A stretch of 64,000 nt of DNA from Promethearchaeota archaeon (GTDB taxonomy: Archaea > Asgardarchaeota > Lokiarchaeia > Sigyniarchaeales > SOKP01), in assembly GCA_018238625.1 (NCBI GenBank), contig JABCSY010000006.1, positions 9,704-73,703 on the forward strand, written 5' to 3'. The notes beneath the pieces were generated by a model, which saw only the letters and a list, made by a program, of their open reading frames with translations, was not told where the DNA came from and did no database searches. Positions 2,080 to 58,276 of this stretch are shown piece by piece (the first letter of the stretch is position 1; each line of letters opens with the position of its first letter). Position numbers and translations under genes: made by a program.

Positions 2080-4308
2080 ATGCAGAGTAATAATGGTTTA
2101 AATCAAATTATATACATGCTTCTAATCGAAGATAATACCGGTGATATACGAATAATAAAAGAACTCCTTAAGGAGGCTAAAGAATTTATATTCGATTTGC
2201 GTATTGCCGAAAATTTTTCGAAAGGATTGATTTGTATCAAAGAGGCTTCGTTTGATATTATTCTTCTAGACCTTATGCTCCCGGACAGCTCTGGTATAGA
2301 AACATTAGAACGGATGTTAGATGAAATTTCGATAAGTCCCATTATTGTGCTTACAGGGATGGATAACATGAATTTAGCAATTAAGGCAGTTAAAGCAGGT
2401 GCTCAAGATTATTTAGTTAAAGGACAGATTGAAAGCAATTCATTAATACTCTCAATATTTCATGCAATTGATAGACATAAAATGAAGCAAACTATTGAAT
2501 CATTAGTATATAAATTACAAAAAGATGAGATTCAATTACGCAAAATAATAGAAGAGAACGCTGATAGTATTGTCATTGTCGATAAAAAAGGAGTAGTCCG
2601 TTTTGTAAACCCAATTGCAGAAAAATTTTTTGGACGATATAAGAATGAATTTATTGGGGAAAATTTTGGTTACCCTACTGGACCAGAAACTCAAGAGATA
2701 ACTATTATACGAAAGTCTGGTAATATCGCAATTGCTGAAATCAATTCAGTAGAAATAGATTGGGAAGGTGAAATTGCTGATTTATTAACTATTCGAGATG
2801 TATCTGAACATCGAATGTATGAATTGCGCATACAAGAATCTGAAAAGAGATATCGAGATTTATTTGAAAAATCTCCATATCCAATTTTAATTTTAAACAA
2901 ACAAGGCGTAGTTATTGACTGTAATTCCGGTTTAGAGCAATTACTTGATTTTAAAAAAGAGGTTATAATTAATAAAAATTATAAAGAAACTCCCTTGGCT
3001 AATCCGGAGTATTTAGAATTATTTGATAAGGTTCACAGTGAAATATTAAAAGGAAATTTCCCAAATCCGATAGAAATTAAATATTTAAAATCAATAAAAG
3101 ACGAAATTATTTGGCTTAAACTAAATTTTTCATCTATAATTATAGGAAACCAGGCTTTAATTTATATTTTAATTCAAGATATTACAGAAATTAAGCAATC
3201 AGAGCAAGAAGTAAAAAGATTGGAGCAAACGCTTCATGAAATGAATGCGTTGATAGAGGATGCTCCTCTAGCAATATTTTTAATTGATAAAACGAGTAAG
3301 ATTTTAAGAGCTAATAAAAAAGCTTTAAATTTATTTCAATATCATTTAGATGAGATATTAAATCTAAATATATTCGATTTAGTTAGTTCAGAATTTTCAG
3401 AAATTATTACAACGCACTATACTAAAGAATTATATGATTCTTCAGAACCAATTAAGATAGAAATCGTAGTTCAAAAAAAAGATGGAAAAAAGATTGATGT
3501 AGAAATTACCTCTAGAATAATAAGAATCGCAAATAATATGATTATTCAATCTTTTTTTTCCGATATTACTGAGCGTAAAAAATATGAAAGGAATCGTCAA
3601 GAATTATTAGACAAATTAATTTCCTCCTTAGAATTTAAATCGAGATTCCTCGCAACTATGTCTCACGAGTTAAGAACGCCTTTAAATGCTATAATCGGCT
3701 TTACATCATTATTGTTAGACAGAAGTTATGGACAGTTAAATGAAGATCAAATTGATTTTTTGGAAGATGTTACTTCAGAAGCAGATCATTTAAAAAAATT
3801 AATCGACACGATTTTAGATTTATCGATTATTGATATGGGTAAATTTGAACTAACTACAGAAAATTTTGAGTTACTCTCCATTACAAAAGAAATAGTTTCA
3901 ATTGTAAATCATTTATTTAAGAAGAAAAGATTAGATATTAGTTTAGAAGGTATAAATAAACATATTTATATTAAAGCAGATCAATTTAGGTTTAAGCAAA
4001 TTTTATATAATTTAATTGATAATGCGATAAAATTCACAGAACACGGTAAGATTACGTTTAGATGCATAGAAAAAGACGATTATTGGGAGTTTCATGTTGA
4101 AGACACCGGAATAGGGATTGCAAAGGAAGATTATGATGTAGTGTTTAGAGAATTTGGTAGAATTAAAAACGATAAAAGAGAAAATGTTCCTGGTTCAGGT
4201 ATAGGTCTAGCACTATCAAAAAGATTAGTACAGCTTCACGGGGGAGATATCTGGTTTGAAAGCGAAGTAGGGAAAGGTACAACCTTCATTTTTACAATCC
4301 CCAAATAA
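2080..4308 (+). CDS. Hybrid receiver-PAS-histidine kinase
   Basis: N-terminal receiver (LLIEDN, ILLDLMLPD, YLVKG), three PAS-like segments, H-box MSHELRTPLNAI, NLIDNAIKF, DTGIG, GSGIGL. Confidence 0.93.
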   Translation: MQSNNGLNQIIYMLLIEDNTGDIRIIKELLKEAKEFIFDLRIAENFSKGLICIKEASFDIILLDLMLPDSSGIETLERMLDEISISPIIVLTGMDNMNLAIKAVKAGAQDYLVKGQIESNSLILSIFHAIDRHKMKQTIESLVYKLQKDEIQLRKIIEENADSIVIVDKKGVVRFVNPIAEKFFGRYKNEFIGENFGYPTGPETQEITIIRKSGNIAIAEINSVEIDWEGEIADLLTIRDVSEHRMYELRIQESEKRYRDLFEKSPYPILILNKQGVVIDCNSGLEQLLDFKKEVIINKNYKETPLANPEYLELFDKVHSEILKGNFPNPIEIKYLKSIKDEIIWLKLNFSSIIIGNQALIYILIQDITEIKQSEQEVKRLEQTLHEMNALIEDAPLAIFLIDKTSKILRANKKALNLFQYHLDEILNLNIFDLVSSEFSEIITTHYTKELYDSSEPIKIEIVVQKKDGKKIDVEITSRIIRIANNMIIQSFFSDITERKKYERNRQELLDKLISSLEFKSRFLATMSHELRTPLNAIIGFTSLLLDRSYGQLNEDQIDFLEDVTSEADHLKKLIDTILDLSIIDMGKFELTTENFELLSITKEIVSIVNHLFKKKRLDISLEGINKHIYIKADQFRFKQILYNLIDNAIKFTEHGKITFRCIEKDDYWEFHVEDTGIGIAKEDYDVVFREFGRIKNDKRENVPGSGIGLALSKRLVQLHGGDIWFESEVGKGTTFIFTIPK

Positions 4309-4344
4309 TCTTGAGAATAAATTTGGACTTTTAAAATAAATTAT

Positions 4345-5496
4345 CTACTTTTTTTTTATTCTGGTTTCTGGTATTAATATTATAAAATTACTACCCTTAG
4401 TATGATCTCCTTTAATGCTATCTTCTACCCTAATTTGTCCTTTGTAACTATCTAACAGTCTTTTTACAAGGGATAAACCTATACCCATTCCGCCAATATA
4501 ATTGTTATCTGGAGAAGCTCTAGTAAAAATTGAGGCTTTCCTCGAATCCTCTATGCCAGTCCCGTTATCTATAAACTCTATTTTGACACAGCTTATTTGA
4601 TTTTCTTTCTTTTTCGAAATTTTAATTGCTATTTCTACACTCAGATTTTCGTTATGTTTTACAGCATTAACTAAAATATTTTCAAAAACATCTAATAAAA
4701 GCTCATTTGCTTGAACATAGACTCTCTTATAAGAAGAGTGAATTTTTATATTAATATTATGGGTCTGATATCCGTCTTTTAAATTATTAATTGAAGTCTT
4801 TAAAAGACTAAGTATTTCTTTTGATTGAATAGGCGTTGTGTATTCTTCAAGTTGAGATAGCTTACGAACATTAGAGATTAATGTTGAACCTCGAATGATT
4901 TGATTTTCGATAATTCCTATTATATCCACAATATCATTTTTAACATCTAGATTCATCATTTGAAATTTACAGAGTTGGGCAACTGATAATATCCCCTGTA
5001 AAACATTACTCATATCGTGAGCAAAAATATCTTTGTAAAAATTAGCCCGTTGGAATTCTTCTTCAATTTTATTTTTAGAAAGTTCTAGTTCTAGCTTGAC
5101 TTGCTGTCTTTCAATTGCATATAAAATTGAGCGTTCTAATAATACGGGATCAATTTTTCCTTTAACTAAATAATCTTGCATTCCAAGTTTAAGGGAATTA
5201 ATCGCTAATTCTTCATCATCCCTTCCTGTAAGTATAATAATTGGCATAGCCTCAACCTTTTCACGAATAATAGATATCGTGTTAAGCCCTGTGCAATCGG
5301 GAAGATTAAGGTCCAATAGGATTACATTTATCTCGCTTTTTAGAAGCTCTTCTAATCCCTCGCTAAGCGTCTTGTGATTAAAGAAATTGAATTGAAATCT
5401 TTTTGCCTCTTTTAACATTTCTTCAATCAATCGAGCATCTCCAGGATTATCTTCGATGATTAGGACCGAGATCTCTTCTTTAATTAGTATTTTCAA
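4345..5496 (-). CDS. Receiver domain plus histidine kinase
   Basis: LIIEDNPGD, ILLDLNLPD, H-box FAHDMSN, NILVNAVKH, DNGTG, GMGIGL. Confidence 0.9.
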   Translation of the reverse strand: MKILIKEEISVLIIEDNPGDARLIEEMLKEAKRFQFNFFNHKTLSEGLEELLKSEINVILLDLNLPDCTGLNTISIIREKVEAMPIIILTGRDDEELAINSLKLGMQDYLVKGKIDPVLLERSILYAIERQQVKLELELSKNKIEEEFQRANFYKDIFAHDMSNVLQGILSVAQLCKFQMMNLDVKNDIVDIIGIIENQIIRGSTLISNVRKLSQLEEYTTPIQSKEILSLLKTSINNLKDGYQTHNINIKIHSSYKRVYVQANELLLDVFENILVNAVKHNENLSVEIAIKISKKKENQISCVKIEFIDNGTGIEDSRKASIFTRASPDNNYIGGMGIGLSLVKRLLDSYKGQIRVEDSIKGDHTKGSNFIILIPETRIKKK

Positions 5497-9631: not shown

Positions 9632-9860
9632 TTTATATGATATATATTTTCATTTATTCTACTAAATAATTATCTTTTTATTTATAAATTTTTATGAGTT
9701 TTATTCCTAAATCATTTGGAACGATTCAATTTTATTTCATTATTATAATAACATTATATTATTCTTATGCTGGAATTTAAAACAATCATTAGATTTTAAT
9801 CGTTAATTTTCCTTTTGTTAGCATAAATAATCTGTGAAAGATAAAAAAAAATCAATTATA

Positions 9861-30255: not shown

Positions 30256-33078
30256 TTAATAGTTATTCTCAAGCTCAAGTTTTATCGTTACTATTATGTG
30301 CGGTTCCAAAGTTAAATCAAGATGATTCCCTTTACTTGAATCAATTTTTGCCTTAATGTCGTTTTCTGGCTTTTCTTCCAAAAAGTTTACAATATCCGCA
30401 CTTTTGATGGAAGTTTTTTCGTGTAATGTTAACCTAGCTTTTTGAGTGGTTGGAGTGATGTTGTAGACTCTAACAACTAAAAACTCTCCTTCCTCCGATT
30501 TCTTCAAAGCGCTAAGCATCACATTCCTGTTATCGATTTCAAGAAAGCTTAATTCAGCGGGTAAATAAGGTTTTAACGGTTGAGTAGGTGCTGGTTTAAA
30601 ATATGAGATGATTCCAACAGGTGCTAGGATAACTTTATTCGAAGCTCTCATTGATGTTCTAACTATTGAGGGAACCACCACCTCAAAAGGGTTGTTAAAT
30701 TCTTTACTTTTTATGTGAACGCTCGAATCTAACCAATTAGACTTGTTTCCTTCGACGACGAGAGAAAGTTCGAAAGTATGCTTGCCAAGACATTGAGCTT
30801 CTGGAGTATTTAGGTCTGGACCGGCGTTACTCCTTCTCGAGGCAAAATCGCCTCTTGAAAGCCATTCAATACACCGCAGTAATGTAATAGCCAGCGAAAT
30901 AGTTCCATCTTTGTTTATAACTGCTTCGTATTCGGGTAATCCTTTGTTTATAACCGAAAAAGTTCTTGATGCATCGTTAACAGACACAAAGTCTTTCTGA
31001 TGGTTAGTAGGTAAAGGCTGTTGGGCCCACCCTTCAGACTCTGGCATCTCAACATCTCGCGAAATGACGTAAAAATGACCGTCGGATTCTACTTTTTTAG
31101 ATTTAATATTTGAAGGAAAAATTACTCGTATTCGATGGTCTTTACTATTGTTTTCTAATTCAATCTTAAAATCAATTCGTTTAATGTCTTTATATACCGT
31201 TATATAGATATCAATTAAGTTTGAAATTAGATATTCGTCTCTACTATATCTATCATCGGTTAAAGAATTAGGCAAATTGATGTTTGCTCGTATTTTTATC
31301 GTTTTTTGGGTTGCCCCGTCTAAAAACGGTGTTATTTCTAGAACATTCAGATCTTCTGAGGTGAATTTTAGATCAGTTTGATTATCATATGGTCCAGAAA
31401 AGTCATATTCGTCCCCCCAATCTCCTACATCTTCAAAATAACAAATATTTTCGTACAAAGTTTTGCTTTCCTTATCTAAAACATCGATTTTTCCTTTAAA
31501 ACTTATGTCGATTTTGAAAAACTGATTTTCTAAGCTATTTATACCTAACTTCAATTGTTCGCTCTTTACTACAGATTCTTCTGGTTTTTCTCCTGGTACG
31601 ATATAATAACACCTGTATCCACAAGCAGGAACCTCGGCTAAGAACGAACAATAATAACTAATCGAACCAATAATTCGATATCTTGGTTCTTCGTTGATTT
31701 GAACGTATTGGTATGAGATCTCGTTACCTTCAGAGTCGAGAATTTTGAAAGCGTCTGGATTTTTAAATCCAGCTTTTTTAGTCATAGATATAATGTTAAT
31801 ATTTGCGATATCTTTTCGTTTCCAAGGAAGAGGATTAAATACTACGATCGGAATTTTATTCTCGTCTTCCTCAACTGTGATCAAATCGTATAGATACAAT
31901 AATGAATTTTTAAACACTTCAACACCGATTTGCTCCGCCCAATCAAACCTAGTTTTCATTTCTCTATGAACTTGATCAATAGAACAGCCACATATGCTAT
32001 CGTGGGGGTGGTTTTTAATAAGCCATTTTAAACCTGTGAGCATATAAGCTTGAGGGTAATTAAAATTTTTATATTTATCGAGAGACCATATAATTGTTGA
32101 TAAGGGTTCTGTATATTTTTCGTACAGATATTCAATTGCTGTGTTTCTCTGTTTGATCCACATGCGAGCTGAAAATACTCCTGAAAGTAGATGAGCGTAC
32201 TTTCCCCCTCTTAATTCGCCTTTGAACTGTTTTAACTCTGGATTACAGCCTAATACTTTATCGATGTAATATTCAAAATCGTTTTGTTCTAAAAGTTTCT
32301 CGGGATACATTTCGTTCCATTGTCTGACTATTTCAGGAATTTCCGATCGAGCTTCATGATGATCTGAACCGCTATTCAGAAGAACATAAGGTGTAGCTGT
32401 GAATTTTTCGAACTTGGAAACAACCCTTTTTATCTTATGAAGCGCTAGTTTATATTTTCCACTTTTTTTTGATAAATTAAGATCAGCAACCGAACCGTAG
32501 CTCTGCTTTAAAAATATTCCTAAAATAGAGCTAGAATCTCCGGGGGAATTCCAAATAAATTCAATGTTCAAGTTGTTTTCTTCGAATTCGTTACCAAACC
32601 CTCGCCAGAATAAAATCGAAGGGATTTCAAATCCTTGAAGTATTTGAGGTAATTGAGCAATGTGGCCAAATGGATCAGGGATATAGCCTGCCTTCATAAC
32701 CCTTCCAAATCTTTTAGCAACTTTATGTCCAATTATTAAGTTCCTAATTAGAGATTCGCCACTTACCAAAAACTCATCTGGTAAAATATACATAGGGCCA
32801 ATCGAAAGCCGCCTTTCTTTTACGTATTTTTTTATCTCATCTTCAAATTCAGGTCGAACTTCAAGATAGTCTTCTATCGGAATCGTTTGTCCGTCAAGAG
32901 TGAAGTTTTTATAATTTGGGTCGCTTCTTAGGATATCTAAGAGCTTATCCATCATAAGAACTAGTCTTCCTCTATACTCTTGAAACGGGAGATACCAATC
33001 ATGCTTTATACATCAATTGTATAAAGTTTCACGGTCCCAATGAGTTTCAGGAACTATAATTATGTTATTAGCTTTCAC
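30256..33078 (-). CDS. Glycoside hydrolase family 38 alpha-mannosidase, split gene (exon 1 33078-33028, exon 2 32997-30256)
   Basis: Exon 1 (GTG)KANNIIIVPETHWDRE plus exon 2 WYLPFQEYRGRLVLMMDKLL gives HWDREWY. Also FTLDGQ, PDEFLVSGESLIRNL, YIPDPFGH, HPHDSICGCS. Confidence 0.92.
32998..33027 (-). other. Putative 30-nt bulge-helix-bulge-type intron in the GH38 gene
   Basis: Minus strand ACTTTATACAATTGATGTATAAAGCATGAT, containing an in-frame TGA. Perfect 9-bp stem CTTTATACA/TGTATAAAG, central helix CGTG/CATG (one G-U), bulges AAA and ATT. Cutting after the 2nd bulge nt joins GAA|TGG (Glu-Trp). Confidence 0.82.
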
Positions 33079-33197: not shown

Positions 33198-34058
33198 TTA
33201 TCTCATTGAAGATTCTTTACTATCTATCTTTAAAGGATTTGTTAAAGGTTCAGTAATTCCAATTTTTTTTGCTATTTTTTGTATGTATCTCTTTCTATGT
33301 TTTGCTGTGATATCTAATATAACAAATGCTGGAACAGCCATGACAATTAATAAAAAAGGTAATAATGGAATTAGAAAAACACCCGGATTAATGTCAACAA
33401 CTGCCAATGTATCAATTGTAAACTTCGCATAAATAAAAACAATAGAAATTCCTGCATATCCTTTTAGGATGTAATTATACCAACCTCCCACGCTCCGTAC
33501 TTCTATAGGGTCTCGTATCCCGTTTACTTTTTCTTTATTTGTAAAGACAATCCCTCCATCAAGTAAAAACCAAATTGGTGAAAAAAGACCCATGGATATT
33601 CCAAACATTAAAGGAAGAATTGTCACAAGCGTCACCAAGGGAATTTTTAATTTGTCACTTACCTCTACTACATAAGTTGGAGATAATATTATATTTTGAA
33701 CCCATTCAAACTGTGAAAACATTAGCGCAAAATTTATCGCCATGAGTGTTGGCCAAATTGCTTTAAAACCAATCTTTACTTTAAATGGCTCAGGTCGGTC
33801 TTGGATTCCATATTTCATCCTAATTCCTAAAGTATATTTATGAACAATTAGAAAAATAGGACCTAAGATATATCCTATAAAAATACTTCCAATGATCCCC
33901 GCAATTGCTGACATCCAAAATATGTAATACATTTGAAAGCCTAAATGATCTGGTAATAATTGAGTATACCCTGGAGAATCAACGAAAATTGTAAGCGCAA
34001 GAACTCCTAGCACGACTGAGAAAACAATTAGATGCTTTTTATAACTAATTTCTGACAT
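33198..34058 (-). CDS. Hypothetical membrane protein
   Basis: 286-aa ORF with about 6 hydrophobic segments. Confidence 0.7.
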   Translation of the reverse strand: MSEISYKKHLIVFSVVLGVLALTIFVDSPGYTQLLPDHLGFQMYYIFWMSAIAGIIGSIFIGYILGPIFLIVHKYTLGIRMKYGIQDRPEPFKVKIGFKAIWPTLMAINFALMFSQFEWVQNIILSPTYVVEVSDKLKIPLVTLVTILPLMFGISMGLFSPIWFLLDGGIVFTNKEKVNGIRDPIEVRSVGGWYNYILKGYAGISIVFIYAKFTIDTLAVVDINPGVFLIPLLPFLLIVMAVPAFVILDITAKHRKRYIQKIAKKIGITEPLTNPLKIDSKESSMR

Positions 34059-57643: not shown

Positions 57644-57840
57644 TATTTAAATTCCCCTTTCGATTAGTTATCGATGTATAAGATTTTAATTTATTTTAAT
57701 ATTAGGATTTTCTTAATTTTAGTATTTTAAATACTGGACTTTAACAACTACAAAGTTCACAAGATATAAAAATTTCGAGTAATTATATTCCTCAGGCTCT
57801 AATTTTATTGGCAATGGAAACTTTCGAAATTTAATTCATT

Positions 57841-57925
57841 GCGGGAATTGCCAAGCTTGGTCAAAGGCGCTGGACTCAGAATCCAGTCCCGTAGGAGTTC
57901 GGGAGTTCGAATCTCCCTTCCCGCA
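57841..57925 (+). tRNA. tRNA-Leu (CAG), intronless, CCA not encoded
   Basis: Acceptor stem GCGGGAA/TTCCCGC plus discriminator A; anticodon stem CTGGA/TCCAG with loop CT-CAG-AA; long variable arm; T-arm GGGAG-TTCGAAT-CTCCC. Confidence 0.93.
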
Positions 57926-58276
57926 TTTAACCACAATACTAATACCTAAGAATTAGAGGATTGGATTTGTAATTCATTATACTTTCAAAATAATTGGGAA
58001 AGATTATACCTCAATTCTTTTTATATAAAAAATCTTCACTCACACTACCAAAAGATAAATATCAAAGGTGGGGAAGGAACTATGGTTTTTTATGCCATTA
58101 GTTTTTATTATAAAACGTAGATTTAGATTACATTTAACTATTTATTTTGAGGCTAGGAATTCTGCCATGTGTCCCTATAATATATAATTCTTTCATTATT
58201 AACCCCAACGGAAGGCATTCTTTCTTGGATCTTGATAAGAAACAATACATTTTAACTATAAAATTATTCATAAATC

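Follow-up and report, generated by a model that had tools for sequence, protein, structure and literature searches.

Introns recognized through a motif of the bulge-helix-bulge (BHB) type are known from the tRNAs and rRNAs of archaea and from the cbf5 pre-mRNA of Crenarchaeota (Watanabe 2002; Yokobori 2009, PMC2738675), a case that was described in 2020 as the only one in a coding region (PMC7714728). We examined a stretch of 64,000 nucleotides (nt) from a Promethearchaeota archaeon, a Lokiarchaeia-type member of the Asgard archaea (GenBank assembly GCA_018238625.1, contig JABCSY010000006.1, forward-strand positions 9,704 to 73,703; the whole stretch is referred to as the window), in which a minus-strand gene for a GH38 alpha-mannosidase is divided by a 30-nt insert at positions 33027 to 32998. 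Comparative analysis indicated that this insert is very probably a BHB intron of the GH38 mRNA. The motif and the enzymes would be those of the archaeal tRNA and rRNA introns, with the difference that the host is an mRNA. Like the cbf5 intron, the insert is short and situated within coding sequence, and it has the relaxed form of BHB often seen in cbf5. A hetero-oligomeric EndA splicing endonuclease is thought to be needed in both cases, and in both the pattern of gain and loss among relatives is patchy, as far as the published account describes these aspects of cbf5 (PMC2738675). Splicing was shown experimentally for the crenarchaeal gene, whereas here it is deduced, for the GH38 gene and a bacterial-type leucyl-tRNA synthetase (LeuRS) gene of an Asgard archaeon. 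No homing endonuclease is mentioned together with the cbf5 intron in the sections of those reports that deal with it.

A further archaeal mRNA, HVO_1309 of Haloferax volcanii, resembles the present case in being a substrate of the splicing endonuclease beyond tRNA and rRNA, but its intron is located in the 5' untranslated region (UTR), outside the coding frame, and was demonstrated by knock-down and in vitro experiments, according to that source (PMC7714728). In eukaryotes, the Ire1/RtcB-dependent splicing of HAC1 and XBP1 is described as likewise removing a very short mRNA intron by means of a protein endonuclease and a tRNA ligase, and differs in the use of Ire1, in the recognition of twin stem-loops instead of a BHB and in being stress regulated. 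These mRNAs are cytoplasmic and are cut at the stem-loops, with a resulting change in reading frame or product. A literature search, which had supplementary lists outside its scope, found no report of coding-region BHB introns for Asgard archaea, GH38 or LeuRS. The locus described here is very probably a case of a BHB intron in a new host gene and a new phylum, and is more than a chance match. If confirmed, GH38 and bacterial-type LeuRS would be two new host genes, beyond cbf5 and one Haloferax 5' UTR, and the closest prokaryotic relatives of eukaryotes would be found to interrupt coding sequences and to need RNA splicing for an active enzyme. There is also a consequence for annotation, in that gene callers will give a truncated GH38 without metal ligands, or a pseudogene.

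The GH38 gene was read on the minus strand as a 17-codon exon 1 ending in HWDRE, followed by the 30-nt insert with an in-frame TGA and then by a 913-codon exon 2. An earlier inspection of the letters, termed here the sequence-only reading, had reported a 30-nt hairpin insert with a stop codon dividing the motif HWDRE|W, and a perfect 9-bp stem, a 5-nt loop and two 3-nt bulges; all of these elements were recovered. It was also correct in stating that the insert reads TLYN* if unspliced, as positions 33027 to 32998 in frame gave TLYN*CIKHD with one TGA, and the intact downstream open reading frame (ORF) of about 900 codons that it had noted proved to have 913 codons, or 899 when counted from the first ATG. 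Its description of the central helix, CGUG/CAUG, as fully paired held in part: there are four pairs (CGTG/CATG in the DNA), but only if one G.U wobble is counted. Each 3-nt bulge lies 3' of its strand of the central helix. Two 3-nt bulges around a 4-bp helix are the archaeal BHB motif, a mechanism that was not named in the sequence-only reading, and neither was the link to a homing endonuclease that is discussed below. The position of the cut within a BHB bulge is known from tRNA introns, and cuts after the second base of each bulge would give exactly HWDRE|WYLPF, with unambiguous borders. As judged from its pairing, the GH38 motif is of the relaxed BHB kind, and its cleavage by an Asgard EndA is a prediction.

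In order to compare the locus among relatives, orthologs were collected from 41 related genomes and a species-level genome collection, which gave 95 loci (loci, genomes and contigs are designated L, G and C, respectively, with G000 being the window's own genome). Ninety of these loci had at least 600 residues of exon 2 and represented 73 distinct genes. An uninterrupted HWDRE|WYLPF was read in 59 of the 73 distinct orthologs, so that the comparison with insert-free orthologs that the sequence-only reading had proposed gave exactly the predicted junction, and a 30-nt insert was present at the same place in 14. Every one of the 14 inserts contained one or two stops (TGA, TAA or TAG) at differing positions; the variation of these stops in kind, number and place indicated that the insert is not decoded. 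A translated 10-amino-acid (aa) insertion at this site, which the sequence-only reading had named as the observation that would contradict it, was sought in the GH38 orthologs and was found in none. Of 42 genomes of the genus searched with a covariance model, 8 had the GH38 intron.

Analysis of the 14 aligned sequences (alignment A1) indicated that 95.6% of the cells were paired in the proposed structure. In the 9-bp intron-side helix, h', covariation was detected in 6 pairs, each changed on both sides, and 91.3% of the cells were paired, while the central helix was paired in all 14 carriers with three variants of its 3' strand. Shuffled sequences matched the observed pairing in only 0 or 1 of 500 cases, and slid registers were 33% to 59% paired. 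Constraint extended to the flanking exon bases, and these provided the more telling evidence. The codons GAC-CGT-GAA were present in 14 of 14 carriers versus 3 of 59 insert-free genes, in which 21 synonymous versions were found, and CGTG was present in 14 of 14 versus 11 of 59. The pairs of the outer helix were 100% paired and nearly invariant, and a pairing-competent sequence was found in all 14 carriers versus 28 of the 59 insert-free genes. Thus, it is only in carriers that the exonic part of the motif is fixed. An estimate of chance occurrence was obtained from a scan for BHB geometry (a helix of 4 bp containing no more than one G.U and a stem of at least 5 to 6 bp), which gave 26085 genome-wide matches over both strands and 87 lengths, or about 3.5e-5 per given register.

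The encoded enzyme was examined for evidence of function. Exon 2 contains, in order, PF01074 (Glyco_hydro_38N), PF09261 (Alpha-mann_mid), PF07748 (Glyco_hydro_38C) and PF17677 (38C2), all above the cut-offs, and the match to Glyco_hydro_38N begins at profile position 14, which leaves room for exon 1. The PDB chains 3lvt and 5kbp, both bacterial GH38 enzymes, aligned over the full length of the read-through protein, leaving a gap of 10 residues precisely where the insert lies. In the GH38 enzyme of S. pyogenes, the zinc ligands are described as H13, D15, D125 and H351, and W18 as stacking on the sugar (PMC2815779). Homology to the solved chains places H13 and D15 in exon 1, as the sequence-only reading had held for the metal-ligand His and Asp, and W18 as residue 1 of exon 2. 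The nucleophile-Asp motif PDPFG and the second-His motif HPHD aligned with 3lvt and were conserved, and their equivalence to the S. pyogenes numbering is our own reading. The ratio of nonsynonymous to synonymous substitution rates (dN/dS) for exon 2 was 0.127 to 0.138 among carriers L001, L002 and L003 and was the same for pairs of a carrier and a noncarrier; exon 2 was intact in all 14 carriers. All 14 carriers had the same last 10 residues of exon 1, although the codons for I, V, P, E, T and H varied synonymously, and orthologs begin with M, V or L at the exon 1 start codon. This purifying selection on both exons indicated that both are kept as coding sequence, unlike the exons of a gene broken by a stop.

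Genome G000 (4.29 Mb in 201 contigs, approximately 32% G+C) was estimated to be 98% complete with 7.6% contamination. It encodes two EndA paralogs (PF01974; 97.7 and 73.8 bits; ORFs of 200 and 201 aa), of which one has the Y, H and K residues that we take to be catalytic and the other is without the His, and also RtcB (556.8 bits). Asgard EndA is described as an (alpha-beta)2 type with a broad-specificity loop (PMC5829648). The presence of two putative subunit genes is as expected for the two-subunit Asgard enzyme. Haloferax, a euryarchaeon, has a different type of EndA. Only 28 tRNA genes were detected in G000 with ARAGORN, 17 of them with predicted introns, and many tRNA genes of this genome are probably too interrupted for recognition; this result is in line with the heavily interrupted tRNA genes of Asgard archaea described in a preprint (10.64898/2026.10.13.758758). 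The tRNA-Leu(CAG) gene of the window, at positions 57840 to 57926, is uninterrupted.

From the structure, the covariation, the exact junction, the exon constraint, the selection and the enzyme genes, we infer that cleavage and ligation occur in vivo. The exonic CGUG of the pre-mRNA would pair with the intronic CAUG, with two 3-nt bulges and the 9-bp hairpin alongside. A two-subunit EndA would then cut each bulge behind its second base (33028|33027 and 32998|32997), and RtcB would join the exons, producing a mature mRNA for a 930-residue enzyme with HWDREW intact. In the unspliced mRNA, translation would stop after 21 residues, and a product of exon 2 only would be without the zinc ligands H13 and D15 and without the stacking residue W18. 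The sequence-only reading had treated the insert as an intron whose splicing an active enzyme appears to require. This view was supported, since all comparative tests run were in agreement with it. The coordinates of the features are given in Table 1.

Table 1. Features of the GH38 locus, its upstream neighbors and the LeuRS insert (window positions unless a genome and contig are named)
Feature	Position	Strand	Remarks
GH38 exon 1, GTG start and 17 codons, VKANNIIIVPETHWDRE	33028..33078	-	Zinc ligands H13 and D15 inside, by homology
30-nt BHB mini-intron (very probable), ACTTTATACAATTGATGTATAAAGCATGAT, in-frame TGA	32998..33027	-	Exact junction without insert in 59/73 distinct orthologs
GH38 exon 2, 913 codons and stop, first residue W18 (WYLPF...)	30256..32997	-	Pfam domains; dN/dS ~0.13
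Central helix, 5' strand CGTG, exonic (Arg codon and base 1 of Glu codon)	33030..33033	-	Pairs with 33000-33003
5' bulge AAA	33027..33029	-	Predicted cut 33028|33027, where insert-free orthologs have their junction
Intron hairpin h': 9-bp stem (33026-33018 with 33012-33004), 5-nt loop (33017-33013)	33004..33026	-	Covariation
Central helix, 3' strand CATG, intronic	33000..33003	-	Variants CATG, CACG and CGCG all pair with CGTG
3' bulge ATT	32997..32999	-	Predicted cut 32998|32997; junction agrees with insert-free orthologs
Weak outer helix, exon 2 side	32987..32996	-	G32996 with C33034; TCCC 32990-32987 with GGGA 33038-33035; 5-nt internal loop between
Outer helix, exon 1 side, GGGAC	33034..33038	-	Sequence reading, covariation, carrier census
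Upstream neighbor, 286-aa membrane protein	33198..34058	-	Fills slot held by LAGLIDADG gene in six other insert-bearing loci
Conserved upstream gene, 506 aa	34170..35690	-	Left border of variable slot; upstream of GH38 in all examined loci reaching there
Second 30-nt BHB insert, with TAA, bacterial-type LeuRS, PMGYD|SFGLPAE	G000:C152 29126-29097 (L107)	-	Genome scan; outside window

The LeuRS insert of G000 provided a second site at which the interpretation could be examined. Its motif is canonical, with a TATG/CATA helix, a 7-bp hairpin and a 4-bp outer helix. In an alignment of 9 distinct carriers (A3), 99.3% of the cells were paired with 3 compensatory pairs, and the outer helix was competent in 10 of 10 distinct carriers versus 1 of 87 insert-free genes. 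The intron was present in 9 of the 42 genomes of the genus, with 10 distinct versions overall, and the dN/dS between two carriers was 0.106. A 29-nt version in G056 (L233, G056:C33:27696-27739) would produce a frameshift unless excised, and two genomes had a stop-free 30-nt version (L146; L229, G057:C64). Another 30-nt insert was detected in the same LeuRS gene of two genomes (L108/L140 = G008:C316; L146), at YYK|WDQ; it has stops and an 8-bp stem, and its central helix contains an A.G mismatch, with extra unpaired bases. All three introns, that of GH38 and those at the two LeuRS sites, have a layout of 1 + 23 + 4 + 2 nt. The LeuRS sequence of G000 itself is in two bacterial-type fragments that are 79% identical and are each cut by a contig end (C30:74-1771, minus strand, and C152), one of them with the intron; these are either paralogs or derived from a second strain in the bin, for which contamination was estimated at 7.6%.

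Searches were also made for further members of this class. A covariance model of the two intron families detected only both known sites in G000 (63 and 54 bits, with the next match at 18.5 bits), and in the 42 genomes of the genus only the GH38 and LeuRS sites and one weak match (23.9 bits) in noncoding-looking sequence. No other copies of the intron were found by a blastn-short search of G000, and the cbf5 gene of this genome has no stop and no gap. Candidates of 20 to 45 nt from a frame-merging scan (n = 231) were read by eye, and only GH38 and LeuRS were convincing; the scan was set for a 4-bp helix, a stem of at least 5 to 6 bp and a length of up to 100 to 160 nt, such that weaker or longer introns are missed, and reading by eye is subjective. 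Other scan candidates were adjacent genes, for example, a histidine kinase and response regulator (C77) and an Mrp-like gene (C39). A flagged TAA in the methionyl-tRNA synthetase gene at C156 is upstream of the likely TTG start and so is not an intron. The isoleucyl-tRNA synthetase gene of G008 (L239, G008:C145) has a TAA in the conserved motif HGP*DFEVG, which is a point change without insertion and reflects either a nonsense mutation or an error of sequencing in a contig of low coverage.

Several results weighed against reading a BHB intron into the GH38 insert. Its motif has a poor outer helix, comprising 1 bp, a 5-nt internal loop and 4 nearly invariant pairs. A folding prediction, one of the checks suggested by the sequence-only reading, was unremarkable, in that the minimum free energy structure from RNAfold was not the BHB, the z score was -1.59 and 17 of 200 shuffles folded equally well, and folding energy by itself offers no argument; the thermodynamic fold of the LeuRS insert likewise does not single out the BHB. 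The shuffle controls for the GH38 and LeuRS introns ignore relatedness and hence provide support but no probability. A genome-wide scan for a BHB plus an ORF gave no excess over decoy geometries (547 versus 587, 610 and 588), indicating that the class is rare and that the scan alone proves nothing. An argument from LeuRS as an essential single-copy gene was dropped because the gene with the insert is the bacterial-type paralog and 4 of 5 relatives checked have, in addition, an archaeal-type LeuRS that is intact. RNA data consisted of 4 runs, namely, two metatranscriptomes and two that are labelled RNA-Seq but are probably DNA, and the contigs of the two metatranscriptomes covered only positions 31912 to 32827 and 32421 to 32647, ending approximately 170 nt short of the junction, and no contig from the 4 runs reached the insert. 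The contigs over exon 2, from runs X17 and X18, respectively, were ~93% and ~96% identical to the window, which hints that the GH38 gene, or the gene of a close relative, is present in the RNA libraries, although DNA carry-over is possible.

Four other explanations of the insert were weighed against these data. A dead or dying gene, in which the insert is an unremoved scar, for example, from endonuclease-driven recombination, that has knocked out GH38, would account for an in-frame stop 4 codons into the insert and for a locus that is a hot spot of recombination and that, in relatives, has a homing-endonuclease gene close by, and the RNA contigs that end short of the junction leave removal of the insert as a deduction. 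It is nevertheless very unlikely, because exon 2 is intact in 14 carriers with a dN/dS of ~0.13, the exon 1 protein is conserved with synonymous changes, the pairing of the hairpin has been kept by compensatory changes and fixation of the exon bases that pair with the insert is confined to carriers. Translational bypass, by which ribosomes would hop over the 30 nt with the hairpin aiding take-off, in the manner of gene 60 of phage T4 or of the 'byps' of yeast mitochondria, would likewise leave a short insert with a stop, a hairpin that starts just after the last codon of exon 1 and a length divisible by 3 in almost every copy. Comparison with the features of gene 60 bypass made this explanation highly improbable: the take-off and landing codons are unmatched (GAA versus GAT in GH38; GAC or GAT versus AAG or AAA in LeuRS), the stop is not adjacent to the take-off codon, and the conserved features are those of a BHB (the 4-bp helix, two 3-nt bulges and a fixed border register), including exon bases 3' of the insert.

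The insert could also be removed without EndA and RtcB, for example, through a different nuclease or by cleaving itself, or the motif could guide cleavage or regulation without rejoining. Cleavage by EndA is here a prediction, and the BHB element of the Haloferax 5' UTR is described as affecting expression (PMC7714728), but the geometry is exactly that of an EndA substrate and the predicted cut sites would restore the correct frame. Furthermore, Rfam had no family at the insert, its sole match in the window being a tRNA at positions 57841 to 57925. We know of no ribozyme for which a 30-nt insert is not too small, which counts against self-cleavage, and the probability of any such route was judged to be very small. 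An assembly or binning artefact is a concern for a metagenome-assembled genome (MAG) with 7.6% estimated contamination; its likelihood is negligible, given that the insert recurs in 14 distinct genes, drawn from MAGs that belong to different record series, and that 14 DNA runs from several studies hold 40% to 97% of the sampled words of the window. A spliced BHB intron was thus retained as the most probable interpretation of the GH38 insert.

The distribution of the GH38 intron was then considered. On a FastTree phylogeny of the 73 proteins, intron presence required 12 changes, of which branches with good support demanded 10 or more, and shuffled labels needed as many (mean, 12.9). The 30-nt insert of the window was identical in L048 and L086 (proteins 62% to 65% identical), was one base from those in L050 and L069, and had 5 to 6 differences from those in L002 and L003 (proteins 91% identical). 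In comparisons of insert-free sisters with carriers, changes were clustered in the final codons of exon 1 and in the sequence upstream, whereas identity in exon 2 was 90% to 98%. At the DNA level, the intron is a presence/absence polymorphism, and it has probably moved between lineages by recombination. An unusual arrangement was observed in G016 (G016:C65; L003:11-61 = L240:6080-6203), in which an orphan GH38 promoter and exon 1 of the window type end exactly at the insertion site. This orphan exon 1 uses codons typical of insert-free genes. It is followed, after 5 nt, by the 3' end of a 419-aa gene on the opposite strand, beyond which lie a promoter unlike the first and another exon 1 that leads into the intron and exon 2.

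Analysis of the 419-aa protein detected two LAGLIDADG motifs, LGFLYADG and LGYYDGDG, which are conserved in 4 aligned proteins, and a match to PF14528 of 27.2 bits (cut-off, 22.5). A search of the PDB with the protein sequence gave no match. An AF2 model of moderate confidence (mean predicted local distance difference test score, 67.8) was compared with the PDB, and the top 30 listed chains were all LAGLIDADG enzymes, maturases or intein endonucleases (E from 1e-5), I-DmoI included. On the basis of its motifs and modelled fold, the gene is assigned as a LAGLIDADG homing endonuclease. I-DmoI and related LAGLIDADG enzymes are encoded within rRNA introns, whereas here the endonuclease gene is outside the intron, upstream and on the other strand. 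Homologs with 54% to 58% identity occupy the same slot, bordered by the conserved upstream gene and GH38, in five further loci, in divergent orientation and 63 to 286 nt from the GH38 start. Among loci with at least 1300 nt of upstream sequence, the endonuclease gene was upstream in 6 of 13 that bear the insert and in 0 of 54 that are insert free; six further loci had flanks that were too short. Fisher's test of this association gave a value of 1.7e-5, with the qualification that related genomes are not independent. The six positive loci are in separate clades. No LAGLIDADG gene was found within ~1.3 kb of the LeuRS introns. Homologs of the endonuclease were present in 27 of the 42 genomes of the genus, several of them inside open frames of 980 to 1350 aa, which suggests inteins with endonuclease domains.

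An arrangement of this kind is known from cyanophages, in which an ORF-less group I intron of psbA and the endonuclease F-CphI constitute a case of collaborative homing (Zeng, Bonocora and Shub 2009, as in PMC6083498). The likeness, as far as that account goes, is in an intron that is without an endonuclease and interrupts a conserved coding motif, in an endonuclease gene, free-standing and optional, that adjoins the host gene, and in the logic that the intron splits the target of the enzyme and the enzyme spreads the intron (PMC6083498). In the phage, however, the intron is a group I ribozyme that splices itself and F-CphI belongs to the Endo VII type and was shown to cleave, whereas the present system would combine a protein-spliced 30-nt BHB intron with a LAGLIDADG enzyme in a cellular archaeon and is known from sequence alone. 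The association with the endonuclease, the shared haplotype, the scattered presence, the block of upstream changes and the orphan exon 1 of G016 led us to propose tentatively, with a chance that we place a little short of even, that the GH38 intron is one half of a two-part mobile element spread by collaborative homing with a free-standing LAGLIDADG endonuclease. The endonuclease would cut insert-free GH38 alleles at HWDRE|W, the mini-intron would split its target and so protect the carrier, and new lineages would acquire a copy of the intron through repair, either by itself or together with the endonuclease gene. If the link to the endonuclease is real, it would provide a testable mechanism for gain and loss of the intron and would explain its location in the most conserved motif of the protein. 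If the homing proposal as a whole is true, it would mean that a protein-spliced intron is still being gained in a protein-coding gene of cellular Asgard archaea, the closest prokaryotic relatives of eukaryotes.

A LAGLIDADG homolog was also observed near another gene in the window's own genome. In G000:C12, a 464-aa homolog (L244:2040-3434, minus strand) is located divergently upstream of gatA (3888-5378, plus strand), which is itself uninterrupted. A 30-nt BHB-like match lies approximately 50 nt upstream of the gatA start (C12:5836) and may be due to chance.

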